A DNA stretch of 64,000 nucleotides, taken from an uncultured Erysipelotrichaceae bacterium (GTDB lineage: Bacteria; Bacillota_I; Bacilli_A; Erysipelotrichales; Erysipelotrichaceae). The first letter of the stretch is position 1; every line of letters starts with the position of its first letter. Location of the stretch: positions 31-64,030 of the forward strand of contig CALUVF010000081.1 of the NCBI GenBank assembly GCA_944324155.1, given 5' to 3'. This document shows, one piece after another, positions 34,213 through 49,105 of the stretch. The notes under the pieces were generated by a model. The model was not told the DNA's origin, did not search any database, and saw only the letters and a program-made list of their open reading frames with translations. The position numbers and the translations under genes were made by a program.

Positions 34213-34845
34213 CTAATTTTCAGCGATCAAATCTTCTAGACGTCCATCTTGTGGGACGACGATCTGGAAAAGATCAAGCTGTTCTTTCTCGTAGTCAATG
34301 ATCGGTCGATTCGACATCGTCTTAACGACCTCCTTTTCATCTACAACCACATTATTAGCCATTTTGAGCATTATTGCAAGAACATCTCCTAAATAGTTAG
34401 ATCTCATCGTAGCATGAAAGCTGACATAGTCCGTATTGAGATTCAAAAGGTAAGAATCATCAATTTGATAAAGACGCACTTCATAACTTTGACCATCGTG
34501 GATAAAGCCGTAACTATAAATCATGTAGGCATCATCATAGATCTGTGTATCAAGATGCGCAAAGCTTGGATAATAGGCTTTGTTGATAATCTGGCTGACA
34601 TTGAGGCTCATCGCAAAGGTAATACCCTTATAAGACAAGATGTCATAGGTATATTGGGTATCTAGGACACTTACCATGCGTGGCAGATAATAAGAATAGA
34701 GATCTTTGTGATGATTGGCTTTCTTATAAAGGGCTGAGCTTTGAAAGGCTTTTGTCTTGGCAAAGAGCGATGACTTAGGATCCCCAATATTTTGACAGGC
34801 CACTAAAAGACATGACAGCACTACTACTAAAAAAGCTTTTCTCAT
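34213..34845 (-). CDS. lipoprotein, function unknown
   Basis: Signal peptide plus lipobox 'LLVAC'. 210 aa. Confidence 0.6.
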   Translation of the reverse strand: MRKAFLVVVLSCLLVACQNIGDPKSSLFAKTKAFQSSALYKKANHHKDLYSYYLPRMVSVLDTQYTYDILSYKGITFAMSLNVSQIINKAYYPSFAHLDTQIYDDAYMIYSYGFIHDGQSYEVRLYQIDDSYLLNLNTDYVSFHATMRSNYLGDVLAIMLKMANNVVVDEKEVVKTMSNRPIIDYEKEQLDLFQIVVPQDGRLEDLIAEN

Positions 34846-34878: not shown

Positions 34879-35283
34879 TTACTCTTTGATTTTCTTACAG
34901 CTAAAGCCCGCACTTTTTAAAAGCTCGATGCTTCGATCAAGATGAAAATATGAACCATCTCTATAATCATCGATCCTAAAGACCGTCATGATCTCATCTT
35001 TTGACATCTTTTCAAGTTCATATTCAAAATACACATAGAGAAATTCACCATCAAAACGGTAATCCTTTAGATCCTTAACGTATTCTTTGATGATCTCTTC
35101 ATCGATATCTTCGATCTTGATGCGGACTTCTTCTTTATAATTCTTAATATGTTTAAAATCATATCCAAGTGTGATCCTTGTCAAAAAGGGGTCTTTATCA
35201 AGTTCACAATAGACATGCCCTGTATTATGACAAGCACTTAGTACAACAGATAAAACTAGAACGCTTACGAGTCTTTTAAACAT
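34879..35283 (-). CDS. lipoprotein, function unknown
   Basis: Signal peptide plus lipobox 'VLSAC'. 134 aa. Confidence 0.6.
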   Translation of the reverse strand: MFKRLVSVLVLSVVLSACHNTGHVYCELDKDPFLTRITLGYDFKHIKNYKEEVRIKIEDIDEEIIKEYVKDLKDYRFDGEFLYVYFEYELEKMSKDEIMTVFRIDDYRDGSYFHLDRSIELLKSAGFSCKKIKE

Positions 35284-35972
35284 GAGAAATAGGATTTAAA
35301 ACGAGCGTTTTCATTAAAGCTTAACTTTGCATTTTCATCATAACTTTTAGAAGTGATTGCCAAAGAGAGATCACCGAGTCTTATAGCTTCATTAATTATC
35401 GGAATATATGCATCCTTTAACTCAAGGCAAAGACCAGCGACCTTAGAACTTGTATCATTAAGGGAAATGTCCTTAAAGCTTTCATCATATAGCGTGACGA
35501 TCTTAACATTTTGAAAAAGCAAGTCGGAAATGATTCTTTCCTGATTGATCGTCAAATAGATATCGACTCTCATGCCTTTTGTTAAACTATTAGGCACGAC
35601 GCTCAAATTGCTGCTCAATAGATCAAAATGGGTCATTTCTAAAAGGCGGTGGTTACTATCGCGTCCCTCCCCTTTTTCATTGACCTGATCCTTTAAAAAG
35701 AAAGATCCCTTGGCGATCCTTAAATCTAGGGCCACAGAAGAGCCAATCAAGCGCTCTTTATTCAAGATCACTTCTTCTAAAACATAGGAACTAGGCATTT
35801 GAATAGCTTCTAAATCCTCCTCTTGGATCAAGTGATTGGCTTCTAGATTATGGCTGGCAATATAAACTGTAATAAGATCGAGCTTTAAATTGTGGTAAAT
35901 ATGGGCAAAGCCAAAACAAAGCAATAAAAGGACAATACTTAAAACAATAATCAGTACATACTTTTTATACAT
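35265..35972 (-). CDS. membrane-anchored SAF-domain protein (CpaB/RcpC-like N-terminal module)
   Basis: N-terminal TM helix, then 'VYIASHNLEANHLIQEEDLEAIQMPSSYV...IGSSVALDLRIAKGSFF', typical of SAF domains. Confidence 0.5.
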   Translation of the reverse strand: MYKKYVLIIVLSIVLLLLCFGFAHIYHNLKLDLITVYIASHNLEANHLIQEEDLEAIQMPSSYVLEEVILNKERLIGSSVALDLRIAKGSFFLKDQVNEKGEGRDSNHRLLEMTHFDLLSSNLSVVPNSLTKGMRVDIYLTINQERIISDLLFQNVKIVTLYDESFKDISLNDTSSKVAGLCLELKDAYIPIINEAIRLGDLSLAITSKSYDENAKLSFNENARFKSYFSCLKDS

Positions 35973-36054: not shown

Positions 36055-36363
36055 TTAGATTGATTTAACTTTTAGTGTCTCACCATCGGGTCCAGGGGTC
36101 GAATTCAAGTAATCGACGATCTTGGCCCTTTGATCGCTCTTGCAAGGACGACAGTTGACTGTATCGGTCTCCTTATTGACCAAAGCTGCTGCCAAGCCAC
36201 TGCAACCCGGATAGCCACAGCTCCCACAGTTATATCCTGGAAGCATTGCAGTAACCGTAGCTTCTCTCTCATCGCCCTTAACTTCAAAGACCTTAGAAGC
36301 AACAGCCAAGACAAAGCCTAAGATACAGCCCACCACAAGCATGACAATAAAGGAATTAAGCAT
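36055..36363 (-). CDS. rnfB: RnfB, minimal form (TM anchor + N-terminal Fe-S domain only)
   Basis: 'MLNSFIVMLVVGCILGFVLAVASKVF...LPGYNCGSCGYPGCSGLAAAL' matches the RnfB N-terminus. No ferredoxin-type CxxCxxCxxxCP repeats. ATG at 36363 overlaps the upstream stop (ATGCTTAA). Confidence 0.75.
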   Translation of the reverse strand: MLNSFIVMLVVGCILGFVLAVASKVFEVKGDEREATVTAMLPGYNCGSCGYPGCSGLAAALVNKETDTVNCRPCKSDQRAKIVDYLNSTPGPDGETLKVKSI

Positions 36364-36547
36364 TTTCTTTTTCTCCTTCTTTATGATGCGGGTGATGAGG
36401 ACAGGTCGCAAGGCGACAGCCCTCACAATCCGCTAATAGATTTTCGCAACCTTCGGGTTTAGGCGTCTTTTGATTGAGGTAAAAGCCAATCGCAAAGATA
36501 GCGCCTAAACCTACAAACAAAAGGATCGCAACGATAATCGAAGGCAT
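36356..36547 (-). CDS. small Cys/His-rich single-pass membrane protein embedded in the rnf operon
   Basis: 63 aa: TM helix plus 'GCENLLADCEGCRLATCPHHPHH'. Start overlaps the rnfA stop (TAATG) and stop overlaps the rnfB start. Confidence 0.5.
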   Translation of the reverse strand: MPSIIVAILLFVGLGAIFAIGFYLNQKTPKPEGCENLLADCEGCRLATCPHHPHHKEGEKENA

Positions 36548-37119
36548 TAGACGATACCAGCTAAGCCGCTAAATGCTAAAGCCATCAAAGCTGCCACAAC
36601 AAGCGCAACCGGATTACCTTTCCAAGAGCTGGTCGTATCAGCCGAATCGAGGCGCTCTCTTAAACAAGAGAATAACACCAGTACCAGCATGAAACCGGCT
36701 GGAACCGAGATCGAATTGACGATCGTCTCGATAAGATTGTAGTTTTGGGTGATATTGTCTTGCGCGACGAATAAGACGACACAATTCGTTGTGATTAACG
36801 GCAAGTAAATACCTAAAGACTTATAAAGCGAAGCACTGTACTTCTTGATGAACATTTCAGTAAATTGAACAAATGCGGCGATAACTAGGATAAAAGAGAT
36901 GAGCTGCATATATTCAATGCCGAAAGGCACAAGCACTAATTTGTATAGGGCAAAGGTCAAAAGCGAAGCACCGAAAATAACGAAGATGACCGCCAAGCCC
37001 ATACCAACTGCACTCTTGGCGCTTTTAGAAACACCAAGGAAAGGACAGATGCCTAAAAACTGTGTTAAGACGACGTTATTGATAAGGATCGCCGCCAAGG
37101 CCATTGATAATAATTCCAT
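36547..37119 (-). CDS. rnfA: Rnf complex subunit A
   Basis: 190 aa, 6 TM helices. 'NNVVLTQFLGICPFLGVS' signature. Confidence 0.9.
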   Translation of the reverse strand: MELLSMALAAILINNVVLTQFLGICPFLGVSKSAKSAVGMGLAVIFVIFGASLLTFALYKLVLVPFGIEYMQLISFILVIAAFVQFTEMFIKKYSASLYKSLGIYLPLITTNCVVLFVAQDNITQNYNLIETIVNSISVPAGFMLVLVLFSCLRERLDSADTTSSWKGNPVALVVAALMALAFSGLAGIV

Positions 37120-37766
37120 TATTTTTTAGCCTCCTTTTCTTTTTTGGCAGAATGTTGTTTGATCCAGGCAAAAAGAGCTGCAAAACATGAGAATGTCAAG
37201 AAAGCACCAACACTTCCCGAGAACAACGAAATAGTGTAAGGAGCTAAAGCCTCAATGCTGAAACCAAATAAGATCTGTGTCGCATCAAAGGGATTGTAGA
37301 ATGAGATACCGCCCGTAGCGATAAGTTCACGAACGACACTAATCAAAACCAAAGCGAAAGTATAACCAAGACCCATGCCAAGACCATCAATAGCGCTGGC
37401 CCCGATAGGATTCTTGGATGCAAAAGCCTCAGCTCTACCCAAGATAATGCAGTTGACGACGATCAAGCCCAAGAAGACGCCTAAAGAGTTATAAAGCTCT
37501 GGCATAAAGGCATGAACGACCATTTCAACAATCGAGACAAGAGTTGCGATAATAACGATATAAACCGGAATTCTGATCTCATCAGGAGTGATCTTGCGGA
37601 TCGCGCTGACTAAGATATTAGAACAGATAAGGACGATCGTTACACACATGCCCATACCGATCGCATTATTGAGCGAAGTTGAGATCGCCAGCGAACTACA
37701 AAGACCTAAATATAGACCAAAGACTGGATTTTCTTTGATAAAACCGTTTTTAAAATTTTGCCACAT
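37119..37766 (-). CDS. rnfE: Rnf complex subunit E
   Basis: 215 aa. 'ENPVFGLYLGLCSSLAIS...NAIGMG' signature. Confidence 0.9.
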   Translation of the reverse strand: MWQNFKNGFIKENPVFGLYLGLCSSLAISTSLNNAIGMGMCVTIVLICSNILVSAIRKITPDEIRIPVYIVIIATLVSIVEMVVHAFMPELYNSLGVFLGLIVVNCIILGRAEAFASKNPIGASAIDGLGMGLGYTFALVLISVVRELIATGGISFYNPFDATQILFGFSIEALAPYTISLFSGSVGAFLTFSCFAALFAWIKQHSAKKEKEAKK

Positions 37767-37778
37767 CTTCTAGTCCTC

Positions 37779-38294
37779 CTAACCGATCAGCTCGCTGATC
37801 ATCGCTTGCGTTGATGTAATAGCAGCTTGAACCGCACTTGAAGTAACAGTCGCACCGCTTAAAAGATCAACCTTTTCATCTAAAGTCTTACCGACAAAAG
37901 CGCTATCGATATTGCTTTGTTCAAAGACCTTCGTACCAAATCCGTCTGTTTCTTGTTGTTGAATGGTCACAACCCCTGTGATCGTACCTTCGTTATCAAA
38001 GCCGATCAATAATTGGATCGGGGTTGAAGAATTATAACCGGTCGTTTCAATACGAGCGGCATAACCTTGACCACTGACTTCAAAAGCAGACTGTACATAT
38101 CCACCCTCGTCGCTTGCTCCTTCAAGCGGCACAAATTCTGCACCGGGGAATAAAACTTCGAGGTTTTCTTTTTCGCTGGCTAATAGACGTTCGGTGATGA
38201 TCGGCTCGGTAACCGAGTTGACAGCACCGATCAATAACCCGCTCAAAGCAGCAATAATACCTAAAAAGATAACTAATTTAACTGTTTTATTCAT
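37779..38294 (-). CDS. rnfG: Rnf complex subunit G (FMN-binding)
   Basis: 171 aa. N-terminal TM helix, FMN_bind domain, flavinylation motif 'DLLSGATVTS'. Confidence 0.85.
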   Translation of the reverse strand: MNKTVKLVIFLGIIAALSGLLIGAVNSVTEPIITERLLASEKENLEVLFPGAEFVPLEGASDEGGYVQSAFEVSGQGYAARIETTGYNSSTPIQLLIGFDNEGTITGVVTIQQQETDGFGTKVFEQSNIDSAFVGKTLDEKVDLLSGATVTSSAVQAAITSTQAMISELIG

Positions 38295-38302
38295 GTTACC
38301 CC

Positions 38303-40150
38303 CTATTTAGCTGCACTTAAAGCTGCTTGTGCAGCTGCGGCAACTGATTCGCTGGTATAAGTAGCAGCACTGATGAGATCAGCTGAATCGTCTAAGGTCT
38401 TACCGACATAAGAGTCCAGATAGCTTTGATCTTGACACTTGTCACCAAAGCCCACTGTGTCACCAAAGGTCGAGAAGACGATAGAAGCAATCGCACCATC
38501 GCTTACTGTTATATCAAATTCATTGCGGCTGTATGTATGTCCAGAAGCTGAAGCCACGCCATCAGGATCGACCAGACCAAAACCGCGGACCGTTACATGA
38601 TATGAACCATCGCCATTGTCACTGACTTCGGCGCGATAAGTGCTAAGATCGTCACTTAAAGCGATCTCGCCACCCTTGGCGTAAGCTACGCCGCCATTTA
38701 AGGCAAGTTTAGCCGCCGCAATCGCTGATTCGCTGGTATAAGTGGCGCCACTTACGCAGTTTACTTCACCATCAAGACCGGTGTCGATGAATTGACCAAG
38801 GAAGTTATCTTCTAAGCACTCATCACCAAAGCCGACTGTATCGCCAAAGGTCGTGAACTCAAATTCGGTGATCGTTTGAGTATCAGGATCAACCGTAATG
38901 GTAAATTCATTGCGTGAATAAGTATGACCGCTGCTAGAAGCTACGCCATCTGGATCTAATAAGCCAAAGCCACGAACACTGATGACATAAGTGTTGCCAT
39001 CTTGTGAGACAAGCTCAGCTTTATAATCGCCATAATCGCCATCGATCGCCATCGTTTCACCTGATGGAACATTGATCGAACGGTAGCTTTCAGCTGGCGT
39101 TAAGCTAAGACCCATTAGGCCGATCGCAATAACACCGACCAAAATACTGCCAATAGCAGAATATAATAATTTCTTTTCAAAAAGAACTTGTTTGCCGTCA
39201 AAGAATTTATCGATGACCGGAGTAAAGATATTAGCTAATAAAATTGAATATAAGACACCTTCTGGTAAATTAGCCATATAGTGGATCAGCATCGTAAAGA
39301 TCGCTGCTAAAACCGCAAAGACGATGCGTCCAGTACGAGTGTTGGGATTGGTGACAGGATCTGTCAGCATAAAGACCGCCCCAAAAGCTGCCCCACCGGT
39401 CGCGATCGAGAAGATGGCATATTCAAGACCAGCCCCATGGCTTAGACCGACTACTAGCGAACCCAAGAAAATAACACCTAAATAGGTAACTGGGACACGC
39501 CAGTCAATGACTTCGCGCCAAGCGAGATAGACGCCGACCAAAAGGATCAAAAGGGTCGATGTTTCACCGATCGCACCATTATAGGTACCAAGCAACATCC
39601 CGCCGATTCCGCCGAAATCGCTTAAGAAAGAGCTCAGGTTCTCACCAGCTAAAAGCCAGCCTGAAGAAGCGATTGTTTGAGTTGGGGTAGCAGTCGTCAC
39701 AAGATCGGCGCTGATGCTTCCAGCAAAGCTTGCAAAGATGATCGCACGACCTACTGCTGCCGGGTTAAAGACATTTTGTCCAAAACCGCCAAACACAAGC
39801 TTCGCAAAGAAGATTGCGATAAAGGTCGCTACACCAATAGCATATGGTTCCATATTAACCGGGACCATCAAAGTTAAAATAATAGCTGTTACCCAGCCAA
39901 AGGAATGGCTGATATATTTGATGACGTTTTCCTTATGTGCTAAAGCCCACAATCCTTCTGTAATCAAGGCAGTGATGATCGATGTAGCCATCAAGATTAA
40001 GGCATTGACCAAATAGTCCATGCCTAAGCGATAGGCATTGTAAAGACCAAAAGCGTAAACGACAAGAAGACCGATGGTCAGATGCATCATGATCCCACTG
40101 GTCGAAAGTTTTTGACGAAGATGTGGTGCTGCTGAATATTTAAATTCCAT
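38303..40150 (-). CDS. rnfD: Rnf complex subunit D fused to an extra TM helix and two tandem FMN-binding domains
   Basis: RnfD core ('FNPAAVGR', 'DLVTTATP', 'FMLTDPVT') up to about residue 325. This is followed by the helix 'LLYSAIGSILVGVIAIGLMGLSL' and two FMN_bind-like modules ending in 'VSGATYTS' and 'ISAATYTS'. ATG at 40150 has GGAGGA 6 nt upstream. Confidence 0.9.
   Translation of the reverse strand: MEFKYSAAPHLRQKLSTSGIMMHLTIGLLVVYAFGLYNAYRLGMDYLVNALILMATSIITALITEGLWALAHKENVIKYISHSFGWVTAIILTLMVPVNMEPYAIGVATFIAIFFAKLVFGGFGQNVFNPAAVGRAIIFASFAGSISADLVTTATPTQTIASSGWLLAGENLSSFLSDFGGIGGMLLGTYNGAIGETSTLLILLVGVYLAWREVIDWRVPVTYLGVIFLGSLVVGLSHGAGLEYAIFSIATGGAAFGAVFMLTDPVTNPNTRTGRIVFAVLAAIFTMLIHYMANLPEGVLYSILLANIFTPVIDKFFDGKQVLFEKKLLYSAIGSILVGVIAIGLMGLSLTPAESYRSINVPSGETMAIDGDYGDYKAELVSQDGNTYVISVRGFGLLDPDGVASSSGHTYSRNEFTITVDPDTQTITEFEFTTFGDTVGFGDECLEDNFLGQFIDTGLDGEVNCVSGATYTSESAIAAAKLALNGGVAYAKGGEIALSDDLSTYRAEVSDNGDGSYHVTVRGFGLVDPDGVASASGHTYSRNEFDITVSDGAIASIVFSTFGDTVGFGDKCQDQSYLDSYVGKTLDDSADLISAATYTSESVAAAAQAALSAAK
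38315..39061 (-). repeat. diverged in-frame tandem duplication encoding two FMN_bind-like modules
   Basis: Copy 1 at 38699-39061 and copy 2 at 38315-38668. The protein copies align over about 115 residues ('VRGFGLLDPDGVASSSGHTYSRNEF' versus 'VRGFGLVDPDGVASASGHTYSRNEF'). Confidence 0.85.
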
Positions 40151-40162
40151 GTGCATTCCTCC

Positions 40163-41452
40163 CTACTTCTTTACGCGCAAAGCCATCAAGCGTTTCGCCT
40201 TACGCACATTCTCTGTAACTTCGATCTTAGATGGACAGATATATGTACACATACCGCATTCAATGCAATCCATCGGACGAAGCTTTTCTAAACGATCGAC
40301 ATCATTAGCTTTTAGAGCATTTGAGATGTTGACTGGCTCAAGGCCGCTGGGGCAATGCTCAACACATTGACCGCAACGCAGACACTTTAAGCTTTCAACT
40401 GGCTTATAAGCCAAGATCGTTAAAGCATTAGTTGATGAAGCGACAACTACCTCATCCTTAATGACGCTAGTGCCCATCATTGGACCCCCTGCAATTAAAG
40501 AAACCGTCTCGCTGGTATAGCCACCACAAGCTTCAACTAAGGCGCTAAAAGGCGTACCAACTCGGCATCTTACGTTATGAGGCTCTTTGATCGCATCGCC
40601 TGATACGGTAACGATCTTTTCGACGATCGGCATACCTGATGTCATAGCCTCGCCTAGCATAATGGCCGTCGTAGCATTGGATACGATACAGTTTACTTCG
40701 ATCGGCAAACGATCATAACGTTTGTGGATCAATTCATAGACTAATGTCCTTTCCCAACCCATTGGATAGACATCTGGAACAGGACATACTTCGATCCCCT
40801 TATCATCTTTAAAGAGATCTTGTAAAACCGGAATCAGATCCTTCTTGCTGACTTTGATGCCAACCATACATTTCTTGGCTTTAGAAGCCTTAAACATTGC
40901 CTTGACACCTAAATGGAACAAGTCTTTGTTTAAGCCCATACCCTGAGCATCAGATGTGATGTATGGTTCACATTCAACGGCGTTGATAATCAAAGTTTCA
41001 CACTTGTCAGTGTTGTATTTGACATAAGTTGGGAAACCGGCTCCGCCGCAGCCAACAAGACCTTTTTCTTTCATGAAATCGATGATCTTTTCAGCGCTGG
41101 CTTCTTCTAAAGACAGAGTCGAAAGACCTTCGGCTTTAGTATATTGGCCATCGTTTTCGATCACCAAATGATCAGCTGGCTTTAAATTACTTCCCATGCG
41201 CTTTTCGATTCCTAGAACTTTACCGGAAACCGACGCAAAAACCGGCACATAGAAATGATCATTGCGCAAAGCGACGACATCGCCGACTTTAACGCTGTCA
41301 TTTTCTTTGACTTTAACTTCGATCTTAGCATTGCCCATCGTGATCGGGATATAAACCTTTTCAAGCTTAGGCAAACTTAAGATCTCGTTATGTGCTGTCA
41401 ATTCTTTGTGCCCATTGATATGCTTGCGCATTGGTCCAATCAAAAATGACAT
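40163..41452 (-). CDS. rnfC: Rnf complex subunit C
   Basis: 429 aa. 'GCGGAGFPT' NADH/FMN site. Two 4Fe-4S motifs, 'CLRCGQCVEHCP' and 'CIECGMCTYICP'. Confidence 0.9.
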   Translation of the reverse strand: MSFLIGPMRKHINGHKELTAHNEILSLPKLEKVYIPITMGNAKIEVKVKENDSVKVGDVVALRNDHFYVPVFASVSGKVLGIEKRMGSNLKPADHLVIENDGQYTKAEGLSTLSLEEASAEKIIDFMKEKGLVGCGGAGFPTYVKYNTDKCETLIINAVECEPYITSDAQGMGLNKDLFHLGVKAMFKASKAKKCMVGIKVSKKDLIPVLQDLFKDDKGIEVCPVPDVYPMGWERTLVYELIHKRYDRLPIEVNCIVSNATTAIMLGEAMTSGMPIVEKIVTVSGDAIKEPHNVRCRVGTPFSALVEACGGYTSETVSLIAGGPMMGTSVIKDEVVVASSTNALTILAYKPVESLKCLRCGQCVEHCPSGLEPVNISNALKANDVDRLEKLRPMDCIECGMCTYICPSKIEVTENVRKAKRLMALRVKK

Positions 41453-41525: not shown

Positions 41526-42662
41526 ATGAAAAAGATACAAGTTCTAGGCATTTGCCTATTAGTTTGCCTTTTGGTGGGCTGTAACAGTAAAACCAATCTC
41601 ACTCAATACTCTAAAACAGAATTGGATTGTGGTTTTGACACCATTTGCTCATTGAATGCTTTTTCTAAAAGTGAAGAAGAATTCGATGAATATTTTAATA
41701 CCATGGTGGAAGAGTTCCGTTATTATCACAAGCTCTTTGACATCTACCACAACTACGAAGGCCTCAACAACATCAAGACGATCAATGACAACGCTGGAAT
41801 TAAGGCGATCGAAGTTGACCCTGTCATCATTGAACTCATCGACCTTTCTAAAGCGATCTATGATCTCTCTGGCGGTGCCTTCGATATAAGTGATGGAGCA
41901 CTTTTAAAAGTTTGGCACAATTATCGTGATGCAGGCAAAGATCTAAACGCCAATGGCGAATATGGGGATATCCCCGAAAATAGTGAGCTAGAAGAAGCCT
42001 CTTTACATCATGGTTTTGATAAAATCGAGATCGACTACAAGGCAAATACCGTCTATATTAATGATCCCGACGTATCATTAGATGTCGGCGGGGTCGCCAA
42101 AGGGTTTGCCGTCGAAAAAGTCGCTATGACTTTAAAGGAAATGGGTATCTCTAATGCTGCCGTCAATGCCGGTGGCAATCAGCGTCTAATCGATGGCAAA
42201 GCCGATGGCACAGGCTGGAATGTCGGGATTCAAGACCCACGGGCCGCTTCGATAGCAGGAGTTGTGACCAATTCAAATATCGCCATCATCCCTGATCAAA
42301 AAGATGTGGCCGTCGTTACTTCCGGGGACTATCAAAATTATTACATTGCCAAAGGTGATCTTGTCTATTCACATATCATCGATCCCCATACCCTCTTCCC
42401 AGCTGATAAATATAACTCCGTCACCATTGTCTGCAAAGACTCAGGACTAGCCGATTGTCTATCTACCTCGCTTTTTGTAATGGACTATGAAGAAGGCCTT
42501 GAATTCATCGACAAGATCAATGAAGCGTATGATGATGATATCGTGGTCATCTGGGTCTCTAATGAGATACTTGATGATAGCAGTATTAAATCGATCTCAG
42601 AAGAAACCCAATACATTACAGTTACGGATAATTTCAAAGATAAGCTCATCACAAGCGAATAA
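41526..42662 (+). CDS. apbE: FAD:protein FMN transferase (ApbE) lipoprotein
   Basis: Lipobox 'LLVGC'. 'FDISDGALLKVW', 'LDVGGVAKGFAVEKV', 'VTSGDYQNYY' are ApbE-family motifs. Confidence 0.9.
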   Translation: MKKIQVLGICLLVCLLVGCNSKTNLTQYSKTELDCGFDTICSLNAFSKSEEEFDEYFNTMVEEFRYYHKLFDIYHNYEGLNNIKTINDNAGIKAIEVDPVIIELIDLSKAIYDLSGGAFDISDGALLKVWHNYRDAGKDLNANGEYGDIPENSELEEASLHHGFDKIEIDYKANTVYINDPDVSLDVGGVAKGFAVEKVAMTLKEMGISNAAVNAGGNQRLIDGKADGTGWNVGIQDPRAASIAGVVTNSNIAIIPDQKDVAVVTSGDYQNYYIAKGDLVYSHIIDPHTLFPADKYNSVTIVCKDSGLADCLSTSLFVMDYEEGLEFIDKINEAYDDDIVVIWVSNEILDDSSIKSISEETQYITVTDNFKDKLITSE

Positions 42663-45164: not shown

Positions 45165-45707
45165 TTAATAATTTTCGTGATATAGCTCGAAGTAAGCACG
45201 GGCATGGTGGCATACCGGGCATTCTTCAGGAGCGTTTTTACCCTTGTGGATATGTCCACAGTTGCGGCAGATCCAAACGGTCTCTTCAGGACGATCAAAA
45301 ACCACACCATCTTCAATATTCTTAAGAAGTTTCAAGTAGCGCTCTTCATGATGTTTTTCGATCGCGCCGACCCCTTCCATTTGATCGGCAATCTCATCAA
45401 AGCCTTCTTCTCTGGCTTCTTTGGCCATGCGATCATACATGTCAGTCCACTCAAAGTTTTCGCCACTAGCGGCATCTTTTAAATTCTGGGCGGTAGTTGG
45501 CACAGCTCCACCATGCAGATGCTTAAACCAAAGTTCGGCGTGTTCCTTTTCATTGGCTGCCGTATCTAAAAAATACTGTGCGATCTGCTCATAGCCTTCT
45601 TTTTTAGCCTTAGAAGCATAGAAAGTGTACTTGTTGCGGGCTTGAGATTCGCCAGCAAAAGCTTCTTGCAAGTTCTTTTCAGTCTTTGTTCCTTTTAAAT
45701 CTTTCAT
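45165..45707 (-). CDS. rbr: rubrerythrin
   Basis: Diiron four-helix domain ('ESQARNKY', 'EKEHAELW') plus a C-terminal rubredoxin-like 'CRNCGH...CPVCHH'. Confidence 0.9.
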
Positions 45708-48280: not shown

Positions 48281-49105
48281 TTAATCCAAAGCCAATAAAT
48301 CAGCTACTAGTTCATTTAAGTAGTCTTCCCTGTAATCTTCGATCGCACCCTCATCGGCCATATTAGCCAAAGCATGATCTAAAGGCAGAGCCGCCATCAG
48401 CTTCAGATTGTATTTTTTAGCCAATTCTAAAGATACATCGTTTTTGTAAAGATAGATCTTTTCGTTGCAGTTTGGACATTTGACAAAGGCCATGTTTTCA
48501 ACTAATGACAAGATCTTCGTATTCATCTTGTCGGCCATGACGATCGCTTTAGAGACGACGCTTGAAACTAATTTAGAGGGCGATGTGACCATCACAATCC
48601 CATCAAGTGGCAAGCTTTGACCGACCGTCAAAGCAACATCGCTGGTTCCTGGTGGCATGTCGACGATCAGATAATCAAGATCTAGCCAATAAACCTGATT
48701 ATAAAATTGCTCGACCATGCCCGAAACGATCGGACCGCGCCACAAAACAGGCGTGTCTTCACTTTCCAAAAGCATCGCTGCCGAGACGATCTTGATGCCG
48801 TACTTTTTAGAGGTATTGGGATAGATACCTTTGTCATCGCCATAAGCCATGGCATCGATATCAAACATTTTGGGGATGCTCGGACCAGTGATATCGGCAT
48901 CAAGGATACCGACGCTGAAACCTCTTTTTGAAAGGTCAATCGCCAAAAGCGACGAGATCATGGATTTTCCCACGCCCCCCTTGCCACTTAAGACACCGAT
49001 GATATGTTTGATACGAGTGGAATCCAAGGGCTTTTTGGGTGTAGCTTGTCTATCATTACAATTGTTTTGTGAACAATTGGCGCAATCGTGATTGCATTCG
49101 CTCAT
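48281..49105 (-). CDS. Mrp/NBP35 (ApbC)-family Fe-S cluster carrier ATPase
   Basis: 'GKGGVGKS' deviant Walker A. Cys-rich N-terminus 'CNHDCANCSQNNC'. 'CPNC' motif. Confidence 0.85.
   Translation of the reverse strand: MSECNHDCANCSQNNCNDRQATPKKPLDSTRIKHIIGVLSGKGGVGKSMISSLLAIDLSKRGFSVGILDADITGPSIPKMFDIDAMAYGDDKGIYPNTSKKYGIKIVSAAMLLESEDTPVLWRGPIVSGMVEQFYNQVYWLDLDYLIVDMPPGTSDVALTVGQSLPLDGIVMVTSPSKLVSSVVSKAIVMADKMNTKILSLVENMAFVKCPNCNEKIYLYKNDVSLELAKKYNLKLMAALPLDHALANMADEGAIEDYREDYLNELVADLLALD

Follow-up and report, generated by a model that had tools for sequence, protein, structure and literature searches.

The Rnf complex is usually seen as a closed loop in which electrons pass between ferredoxin and NAD+. 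Here we describe an Rnf operon from an uncultured Erysipelotrichaceae bacterium. It lies in a 64,000-nucleotide stretch of DNA, analysed as a whole and called the window below (assembly GCA_944324155.1, contig CALUVF010000081.1, positions 31 to 64,030). The rnfCDGEAB operon is complete, lies on the minus strand in the order rnfC-rnfD-rnfG-rnfE-rnfA-rnfB, and is adjoined by a divergent lipoprotein gene, apbE. Its rnfD gene encodes the RnfD core followed by an extra transmembrane helix and two FMN_bind modules, the domains being named for flavin mononucleotide (FMN).

RnfD and its relative NqrB have 10 transmembrane helices (2025 review, PMC12174285), and in the solved RnfD the C-terminus is cytoplasmic (Vitt 2022, PMC9588780). 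The threonine that carries covalent FMN in C. tetanomorphum RnfD is Thr153. The window operon resembles the canonical complexes of C. tetanomorphum (7ZC6), A. woodii (9ERI) and A. vinelandii (8AHX) in its six subunits, their order and the flavinylation threonine, and its RnfG, RnfA/E and RnfC are ordinary. It differs in RnfD, which has 11 helices instead of 10 plus two outer FMN domains, and in RnfB: canonical RnfB holds 2-7 further [4Fe-4S] clusters in a ferredoxin-accepting C-terminal domain, whereas the window protein has none of these. It is therefore an Rnf operon that fails one textbook feature, a full-length RnfB.

A different point of reference is PplA of Listeria, a separate lipoprotein that is flavinylated by FmnB and fed by Ndh2, quinone and EetA/EetB. 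A first-pass annotation, made from the letters of the window, had likened the RnfD extension to PplA/FmnB, and one part of that comparison stands: there are two tandem FMN_bind domains, which would lie outside a Gram-positive-type membrane, with an ApbE-family lipoprotein adjoining, and the role proposed, a terminal flavin relay, may be the same. The other part does not hold, since the modules here are not a lipoprotein supplied through Ndh2, quinone and EetA/EetB. They form the C-terminus of RnfD behind a transmembrane helix, with neither signal peptide nor lipobox, and would receive electrons straight from the Rnf flavins, without a quinone in between. Ndh2, EetA/EetB and demethylmenaquinone synthesis genes did not turn up among the roughly 40 open reading frames (ORFs) of the window that were scanned.

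Closer still are the RNF clusters with multi-flavinylated RnfG for which Méheust et al. 2021 (eLife, PMC8238504) proposed a second electron path to extracytosolic acceptors. As those clusters are presented in the relevant passages, the likeness is that ApbE accompanies an Rnf operon whose products offer more than the usual two outer sites for covalent FMN, and relatives of our organism (Holdemania, Solobacterium) do have a multi-domain RnfG in the same operon. The difference is that the extra domains sit on RnfG there, whereas here RnfG is single-domain and the extras are joined to the RnfD C-terminus by a transmembrane helix; because of this the window operon falls in the Méheust class by substance but not by letter. 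Those passages do not mention a shortened RnfB, and a search of the supplement for RnfD plus FMN_bind entries was uninformative and did not confirm RnfD fusions there.

Two further kinds of system deserve comparison. In NQR/RNF-like two-subunit systems of Actinobacteria and the candidate phyla radiation, as outlined in parts of PMC8238504 and PMC11334425, NqrB/RnfD is fused to an NqrF-type NAD-binding domain. These too have an RnfD-family protein with a C-terminal fusion, which is proposed to pass electrons in one direction to an outer FMN_bind protein, but the fused domain is a cytosolic PF00175 domain, the RnfD-family protein no longer has its flavinylation site, and they lack the other Rnf subunits. 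In the window the fusion partner is extracytosolic FMN_bind, the flavinylation threonine of the core (T157) does not vary among homologues and all subunits of the complex are retained. SaFMN3 and CbFMN4 (Tong et al. 2023, PMC10339131) likewise consist of tandem ApbE-flavinylated FMN_bind domains, and domain 1 of CbFMN4 is the best solved match of our module profile (E = 6e-7, TMt 0.75); they are, however, soluble, stand-alone proteins with no defined membrane partner, whereas the window modules have their partner built in. The idea of an electron side exit from Rnf is thus already in print in the passages of Méheust et al. noted above, and the proteins are already in databases, some family members being auto-annotated as RnfD plus FMN-binding domain. 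As far as we could find, the attachment to RnfD, the universal 11th helix, the short RnfB and the possible link to reductase-rich gut Erysipelotrichaceae are undescribed.

The rnfD gene (38303..40156, minus strand) is a single intact ORF of 617 amino acids (aa). In database copies the start is two residues further on, probably at M3, which gives 615 aa, the approximate length that the first-pass annotation had assigned to an RnfD fusion; both PF03116 and PF04205 are matched. The DNA runs through the junction between core and extension in one frame, with neither stop nor frame shift, and the existence of fused homologues rules out a hidden stop at that point. The identical 615-aa protein is present on several independent NCBI and ENA contigs, and the architecture recurs in orthologues that are 89% and about 70% identical. 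Since independent contigs and orthologues agree, the fusion is not an assembly error.

The core (aa 1-325; 39182..40156, minus strand) has the 10-helix RnfD/NqrB fold by three lines of evidence. PF03116 (NQR2_RnfD_RnfE) matches aa 8-322 over profile positions 3-293 of 296, with E = 2e-74 and 251 bits against a cut-off of 27.7; the NCBIfam model TIGR01946 (rnfD) gives E = 2e-53 but, at 181.9 bits, stays under its strict cut-off of 207. A phmmer search pairs aa 6-319 with residues 8-301 of RnfD from C. tetanomorphum, a protein of 310 aa (7ZC6_D, E = 2e-44). Foldseek returned 7ZC6_D (TM-score 0.83), 9ERI_D (0.76) and 8AHX_D (0.74), all with probability 1.00, and NqrB next. The AlphaFold2 model of the whole protein, built with 120 homologues as input, has a mean pLDDT of 89.8 and a pTM of 0.71. 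The core motif DLVTTAT157P aligns with DGVTTATP of 7ZC6_D, so that the VTTATP flavinylation site is present in both; the predicted covalent-FMN site is T157 (codon 39686-39688), which is invariant across the 120 homologues. We conclude that the protein is RnfD proper and that its modules, described below, are genuine FMN_bind domains.

The extra helix, an 11th transmembrane segment, occupies aa 330-352 (39101..39169, minus strand) and has the sequence LLYSAIGSILVGVIAIGLMGLSL, the strongest hydropathy peak of the whole protein (2.31). It had been noted in the first-pass annotation, and AlphaFold places it at aa 327-351 with pLDDT above 90. Four Lys precede the helix and a net charge of -2 follows it; the 265-aa extension has a net charge of -30 and a pI of 4.05. 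Because the C-terminus of canonical RnfD is cytoplasmic, one more transmembrane helix puts both FMN_bind modules outside, as had been proposed, and the flank charges and the pI of the extension fit this orientation. From the solved RnfD topology, the extra helix and the charge bias we infer that the modules are extracytosolic. By the same reasoning they share the outer face with the site of ApbE action, with RnfG-FMN (T149) and with RnfD-FMN (T157).

The FMN_bind modules are encoded at 38699..39061 (module 1, aa 366-486) and 38306..38668 (module 2, aa 497-617), both on the minus strand. The first-pass annotation had described them as two diverged copies, with the second ending slightly sooner (38315-38668, aa 497-614), and they are indeed 52% identical over 120 aa. 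PF04205 (FMN_bind) matches twice within the extension (E = 3.4e-17, 63.3 bits, the cut-off being 22), the stretch in module 1 covering aa 417-487, so the match that the annotation had called for is significant. In the AlphaFold model both modules are alpha/beta domains, each closing with a long helix that begins at the acceptor Thr, as in RnfG. A profile of 26 modules, searched against solved structures, found CbFMN4 domain 1 (8P2B, E as given above), RnfG (7ZC6_G, 1e-4) and NqrC. The extension modelled alone (pLDDT 87.1, pTM 0.68) had RnfG, NqrC, CbFMN4 domain 1 and SaFMN3 domain 2 as structural neighbours. Each module is about 120-130 aa long; FMN-bind2 domains are about 160 aa, have beta-sheet insertions and pack as a pseudo-symmetric two-flavin unit (Huang et al. 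2024, PMC11334425).

The top Foldseek match of the extension was 7ZC6_G over its whole length, transmembrane anchor included (187 columns), which means that the extra helix and module 1 have the build of a second RnfG. The extension also matches the window's own RnfG (E = 1e-5 and 6e-13, the latter for module 2 by BLASTP), but only in the C-terminal half of the domain. A likeness limited in this way does not demonstrate that the extension arose recently from the rnfG gene next to it.

Both modules end in an ApbE-type motif: NCVSGAT in module 1, with predicted flavinylation at T472 (codon 38741-38743), and DLISAAT in module 2, with predicted flavinylation at T599 (codon 38360-38362). Together with T157 of the RnfD core and T149 of RnfG (DLLSGAT149) this makes four predicted covalent-FMN sites in the operon, all of them at motifs that the first-pass annotation had picked out. 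Conservation of the acceptor bears this out, for in 162 homologous modules that column is T in 154 and S in the other 8. At -6 the residue is D (137 modules), N (15) or E (10), at -2 mostly G (134) but sometimes S (16) or A (4), and at -1 mostly A (146). Each window module departs once from D-x-x-[S/T]-G-A-[S/T], module 1 by N at -6 and module 2 by A at -2. In mutational work on the ApbE motif, D to A had a minor effect and G to A kept about 50% of flavinylation (review, PMC12052999); by analogy, both deviations are of kinds that are tolerated.

The enzyme predicted to load these sites is encoded by apbE (41526..42662, plus strand), divergent from rnfC. Its product is a FAD:protein FMN transferase (PF02424, E = 3.1e-66) whose N-terminus, MKKIQVLGICLLVCLLVGC, has a lipobox, the lipoprotein signal ending in LLVGC. 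The divergent ApbE lipoprotein of the first-pass annotation is thereby borne out. The partner gene rnfG (37779..38294, minus strand) encodes a canonical, membrane-anchored FMN subunit of 171 aa with one FMN_bind domain (PF04205, E = 5.8e-14; TIGR01947 rnfG, E = 4e-16) and T149 at codon 37848-37850.

How widespread is this arrangement? RnfD homologues were surveyed as the 120 best matches in a collection of 5.8 billion proteins, and loci by a scan of one genome per species, which gave 80 loci (numbered L below). A survey of RnfD architecture had been suggested in the first-pass annotation, and its outcome is clear: 116 of the 120 homologues are fused, with one module in 80, two in 27, three in 8 and four in 1, while 4 have none. 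All 80 loci are Erysipelotrichaceae-type. The carriers include Holdemania filiformis DSM 12042 (L047), H. massiliensis, Anaerorhabdus furcosa ATCC 25662, Longicatena caecimuris, Stecheria intestinalis, [Eubacterium] hominis and many metagenome-assembled genomes of Solobacterium and Thomasclavelia; the species representatives nearest to the window RnfD are 69-72% identical to it. The layout is constant (ApbE, then C, D, G, E, A and a short B), ApbE being divergent beside rnfC in most loci, and RnfD is fused with modules in most, cultured type strains among them. The hydrophobic helix follows the RnfD core in every one of the 80 loci, even where no module comes after it. Multi-flavin Rnf is a conserved trait of the family Erysipelotrichaceae.

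The number of modules and their point of attachment vary from locus to locus, with 0-3 extra modules on RnfD and/or 1-4 on RnfG. Where RnfG is enlarged it reaches 300-756 aa with up to four sites. Rough motif counts predict 4 covalent flavins per operon here, 5 in H. filiformis (one module on RnfD plus a threefold RnfG) and 6 in some Solobacterium (one on RnfD plus a fourfold RnfG). In two Holdemania loci (L047, L037) and three Solobacterium loci (L059, L060, L070) the protein in the rnfG position has 413-756 aa and 3-4 predicted sites, and RnfD has one module. Paralogous modules inside one protein are 29-94% identical, so module duplication has been repeated, independent and in part recent. 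In L042, L052 and L053, RnfD (677-689 aa) has three motif-bearing C-terminal repeats that a single-sequence phmmer search with the window module missed; these are a more divergent module subtype. Eight loci (L014, L026, L027, L030, L064, L074, L076 and L079; RnfD 363-386 aa) have the helix without an FMN module, which suggests either that modules were lost or that the helix is older than the fusion. The family-wide distribution, the shifting of modules between RnfD and RnfG and the short RnfB all go beyond what the first-pass annotation had noticed.

The short RnfB is encoded by rnfB (36055..36366, minus strand). At about 102 aa it comprises a transmembrane helix and a single [4Fe-4S] 'FdI' domain; only PF04060 was matched, and the protein aligns to residues ~11-87 of solved RnfB chains, which have 274-333 aa. 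The ligands CxxCx4Cx16C are kept, and the poly-[4Fe-4S] C-terminal domain that accepts ferredoxin is missing. The best 120 RnfB homologues, one of them from Faecalibaculum rodentium, are all about 101-102 aa long with PF04060 only, and RnfB in the related loci has 89-149 aa. As this RnfB has no ferredoxin-docking domain, the cytoplasmic low-potential input of the complex is non-canonical, which raises the question of what serves as its cytoplasmic donor.

What might the extra flavins do? Judging from sequence, we consider it plausible, with a probability of roughly 0.55, that this is an Rnf whose tethered outer flavins exchange electrons with extracytosolic partners. The first-pass annotation had already put forward an exchange of this kind through a chain of covalent flavins, and the structural findings are consistent with it. 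With FMN attached by ApbE to T472 and T599, the complex would have four covalent flavins on the outer side of the membrane. The two tethered ones would be reduced by RnfG-FMN or RnfD-FMN and would in turn reduce extracytosolic partners, a third port for Rnf in addition to those for ferredoxin and NAD(H). Such partners could be flavinylated reductases of the kind that acts on fumarate, urocanate or cinnamate, soluble flavins or other oxidants; electron flow in the reverse direction may also occur. The electrons could come from NADH via RnfC and RnfD, or from a low-potential donor via the one-cluster RnfB and RnfA/E, and either route would run downhill to FMN (about -200 mV) and then on to fumarate-type acceptors. 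For comparison, the measured midpoint of the multi-flavinylated protein SaFMN3 is -184 mV (PMC10339131). Module number and attachment point (RnfD or RnfG) vary freely, as expected of a modular wire and not of a fixed catalytic part. If such a relay exists, Rnf is a three-port machine that connects cytoplasmic carriers with extracellular chemistry.

Several observations weigh against electron exchange with outside partners. Pfam scans of the roughly 40 window ORFs found no gene for an electron acceptor, the matches being housekeeping ones; in the 80 relatives, the 10 kb on either side of the operon likewise encode no acceptor, be it a reductase or a cytochrome; and a hidden Markov model of the module detected no further FMN_bind protein, either in the window or around the 80 operons. 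Moreover, four of the module-less loci (L014, L064, L074 and L079) have the helix together with a single-domain RnfG, and the existence of such members of the clade indicates that the core complex works without extra flavins.

An external role gains interest from the physiology of the family. According to the passages on these organisms in Little et al. (bioRxiv 10.1101/2022.12.26.521950), Erysipelotrichaceae, tested with H. filiformis, have large sets of flavin reductases with signal peptides and respire urocanate and cinnamates. The paper never names Rnf, nor do the same passages name a membrane donor, and we take the donor of these reductases to be unassigned in that work. A literature search found no later paper joining the flavin reductases of Erysipelotrichaceae with Rnf, and one on quinones in the family gave nothing useful. 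Since H. filiformis has the operon, multi-flavin Rnf is a reasonable candidate donor. A bolder proposal, which we advance only tentatively, is that Erysipelotrichaceae Rnf is the quinone-independent respiratory chain of 'high-reductase' gut species such as Holdemania filiformis. NADH or a low-potential donor would be oxidised, Na+ or H+ would perhaps be pumped, and the outer flavin wire would feed secreted reductases for urocanate, cinnamate and related compounds directly. Were this so, Rnf would be, beyond a ferredoxin:NAD+ oxidoreductase, a respiratory complex that feeds terminal reductases. To the family of carriers belong bacteria that are common in the gut of humans and animals and were recently shown to use secreted flavin reductases, dozens of them, to respire metabolites from the diet and the host, and the operon is a concrete candidate donor in the cultured H. 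filiformis DSM 12042 and A. furcosa ATCC 25662.

Alternatively, the extra flavin domains could serve the ordinary ferredoxin:NAD+ cycle with no external partner, acting as additional or alternative shuttles between the iron-sulfur centre of RnfA/E and RnfD-FMN, buffering electrons or bracing the mobile RnfG. RnfG swings between RnfA/E and RnfD (review, PMC12174285), and a tethered second copy could share that job; the resemblance of the extra helix plus module 1 to a whole RnfG (7ZC6_G, above) would suit such a helper, as would the retention of all six Rnf subunits and the lack of operon-linked acceptor genes in all 80 loci. Against this, a separate canonical RnfG is always present, solved Rnf/Nqr cores need just one such domain, and module-less relatives share the same core. 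The range from 0 to about 5 modules per operon, with recent duplications up to 94% identical, also fits a wire better than an internal part. We therefore regard a purely internal role as rather unlikely; if the modules do prove to be internal helpers, the operon is still a useful natural variant for studying the mobile RnfG flavin mechanism.

A protective or scavenging role for the outer flavin chain, which would bleed electrons to O2 or other oxidants at the cell surface or hold scarce flavin outside the cell, is considerably less probable. Reduced SaFMN3 can use O2 as an acceptor (PMC10339131), and the rubrerythrin gene near the operon (45165-45707, minus strand) points to an oxygen-sensitive lifestyle. 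Rubrerythrin, however, is a cytoplasmic protein found in many anaerobes, ApbE typically attaches flavin covalently where electrons are transferred and not for storage, and tight conservation within the rnf operon points to energy metabolism. Finally, that the long ORF is an artefact, through misassembly or a lost stop fusing rnfD to a PplA-like gene, or else a decaying pseudogene, can be dismissed in view of the continuous frame, the independent NCBI and ENA contigs, the fusion in 116 of 120 homologues and in most of the 80 loci (cultured type strains included), and a mean pLDDT of 89.8 throughout the protein.

As to the rest of the operon, subunits C, D, G, E and A all have strong Pfam matches and follow one another in operon order with gaps of at most 12 nt. 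The gene rnfC (40163..41452, minus strand) encodes the NAD(H)-side subunit (FMN plus two [4Fe-4S]), with RnfC_N, Complex1_51K, SLBB and Fer4 dicluster domains. The genes rnfE (37119..37766, minus strand) and rnfA (36547..37119, minus strand) both match PF02508 (Rnf-Nqr), with E = 4.5e-61 and 3.2e-55, respectively.

Directly 3' of rnfB is a gene for a CpaB-like SAF-domain membrane protein (35265-35972, minus strand; TIGR03177, E = 1e-8, under the cut-off), and beyond it are two small lipoprotein-like ORFs without a family match (34879-35283 and 34213-34845, both minus strand). Is the SAF gene part of the Rnf system? It follows rnfB in about 42 of the 80 loci, but it looks like a Flp/Tad pilus component, and because synteny extends just as far to pgi and the S1 gene on the flanks we treat its position as conserved gene order, not as part of Rnf.

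The ORFs identified by Pfam in the window include pgi, rubrerythrin, a two-component system, LacI, tRNA synthetases, PolA, PNPase, PTS EI and others, and an Rfam scan of all 64 kb gave no family at the gathering score, whether tRNA, rRNA, riboswitch or other known RNA. A gene for an Mrp/NUBPL-type Fe-S cluster carrier ATPase (48281-49105, minus strand) lies, like the rubrerythrin gene, a few kb from the operon; the two are consistent with an anaerobic, Fe-S-rich metabolism. A promoter and terminator scan found no site above the shuffled background inside the rnf operon, and one good terminator 3' of apbE.

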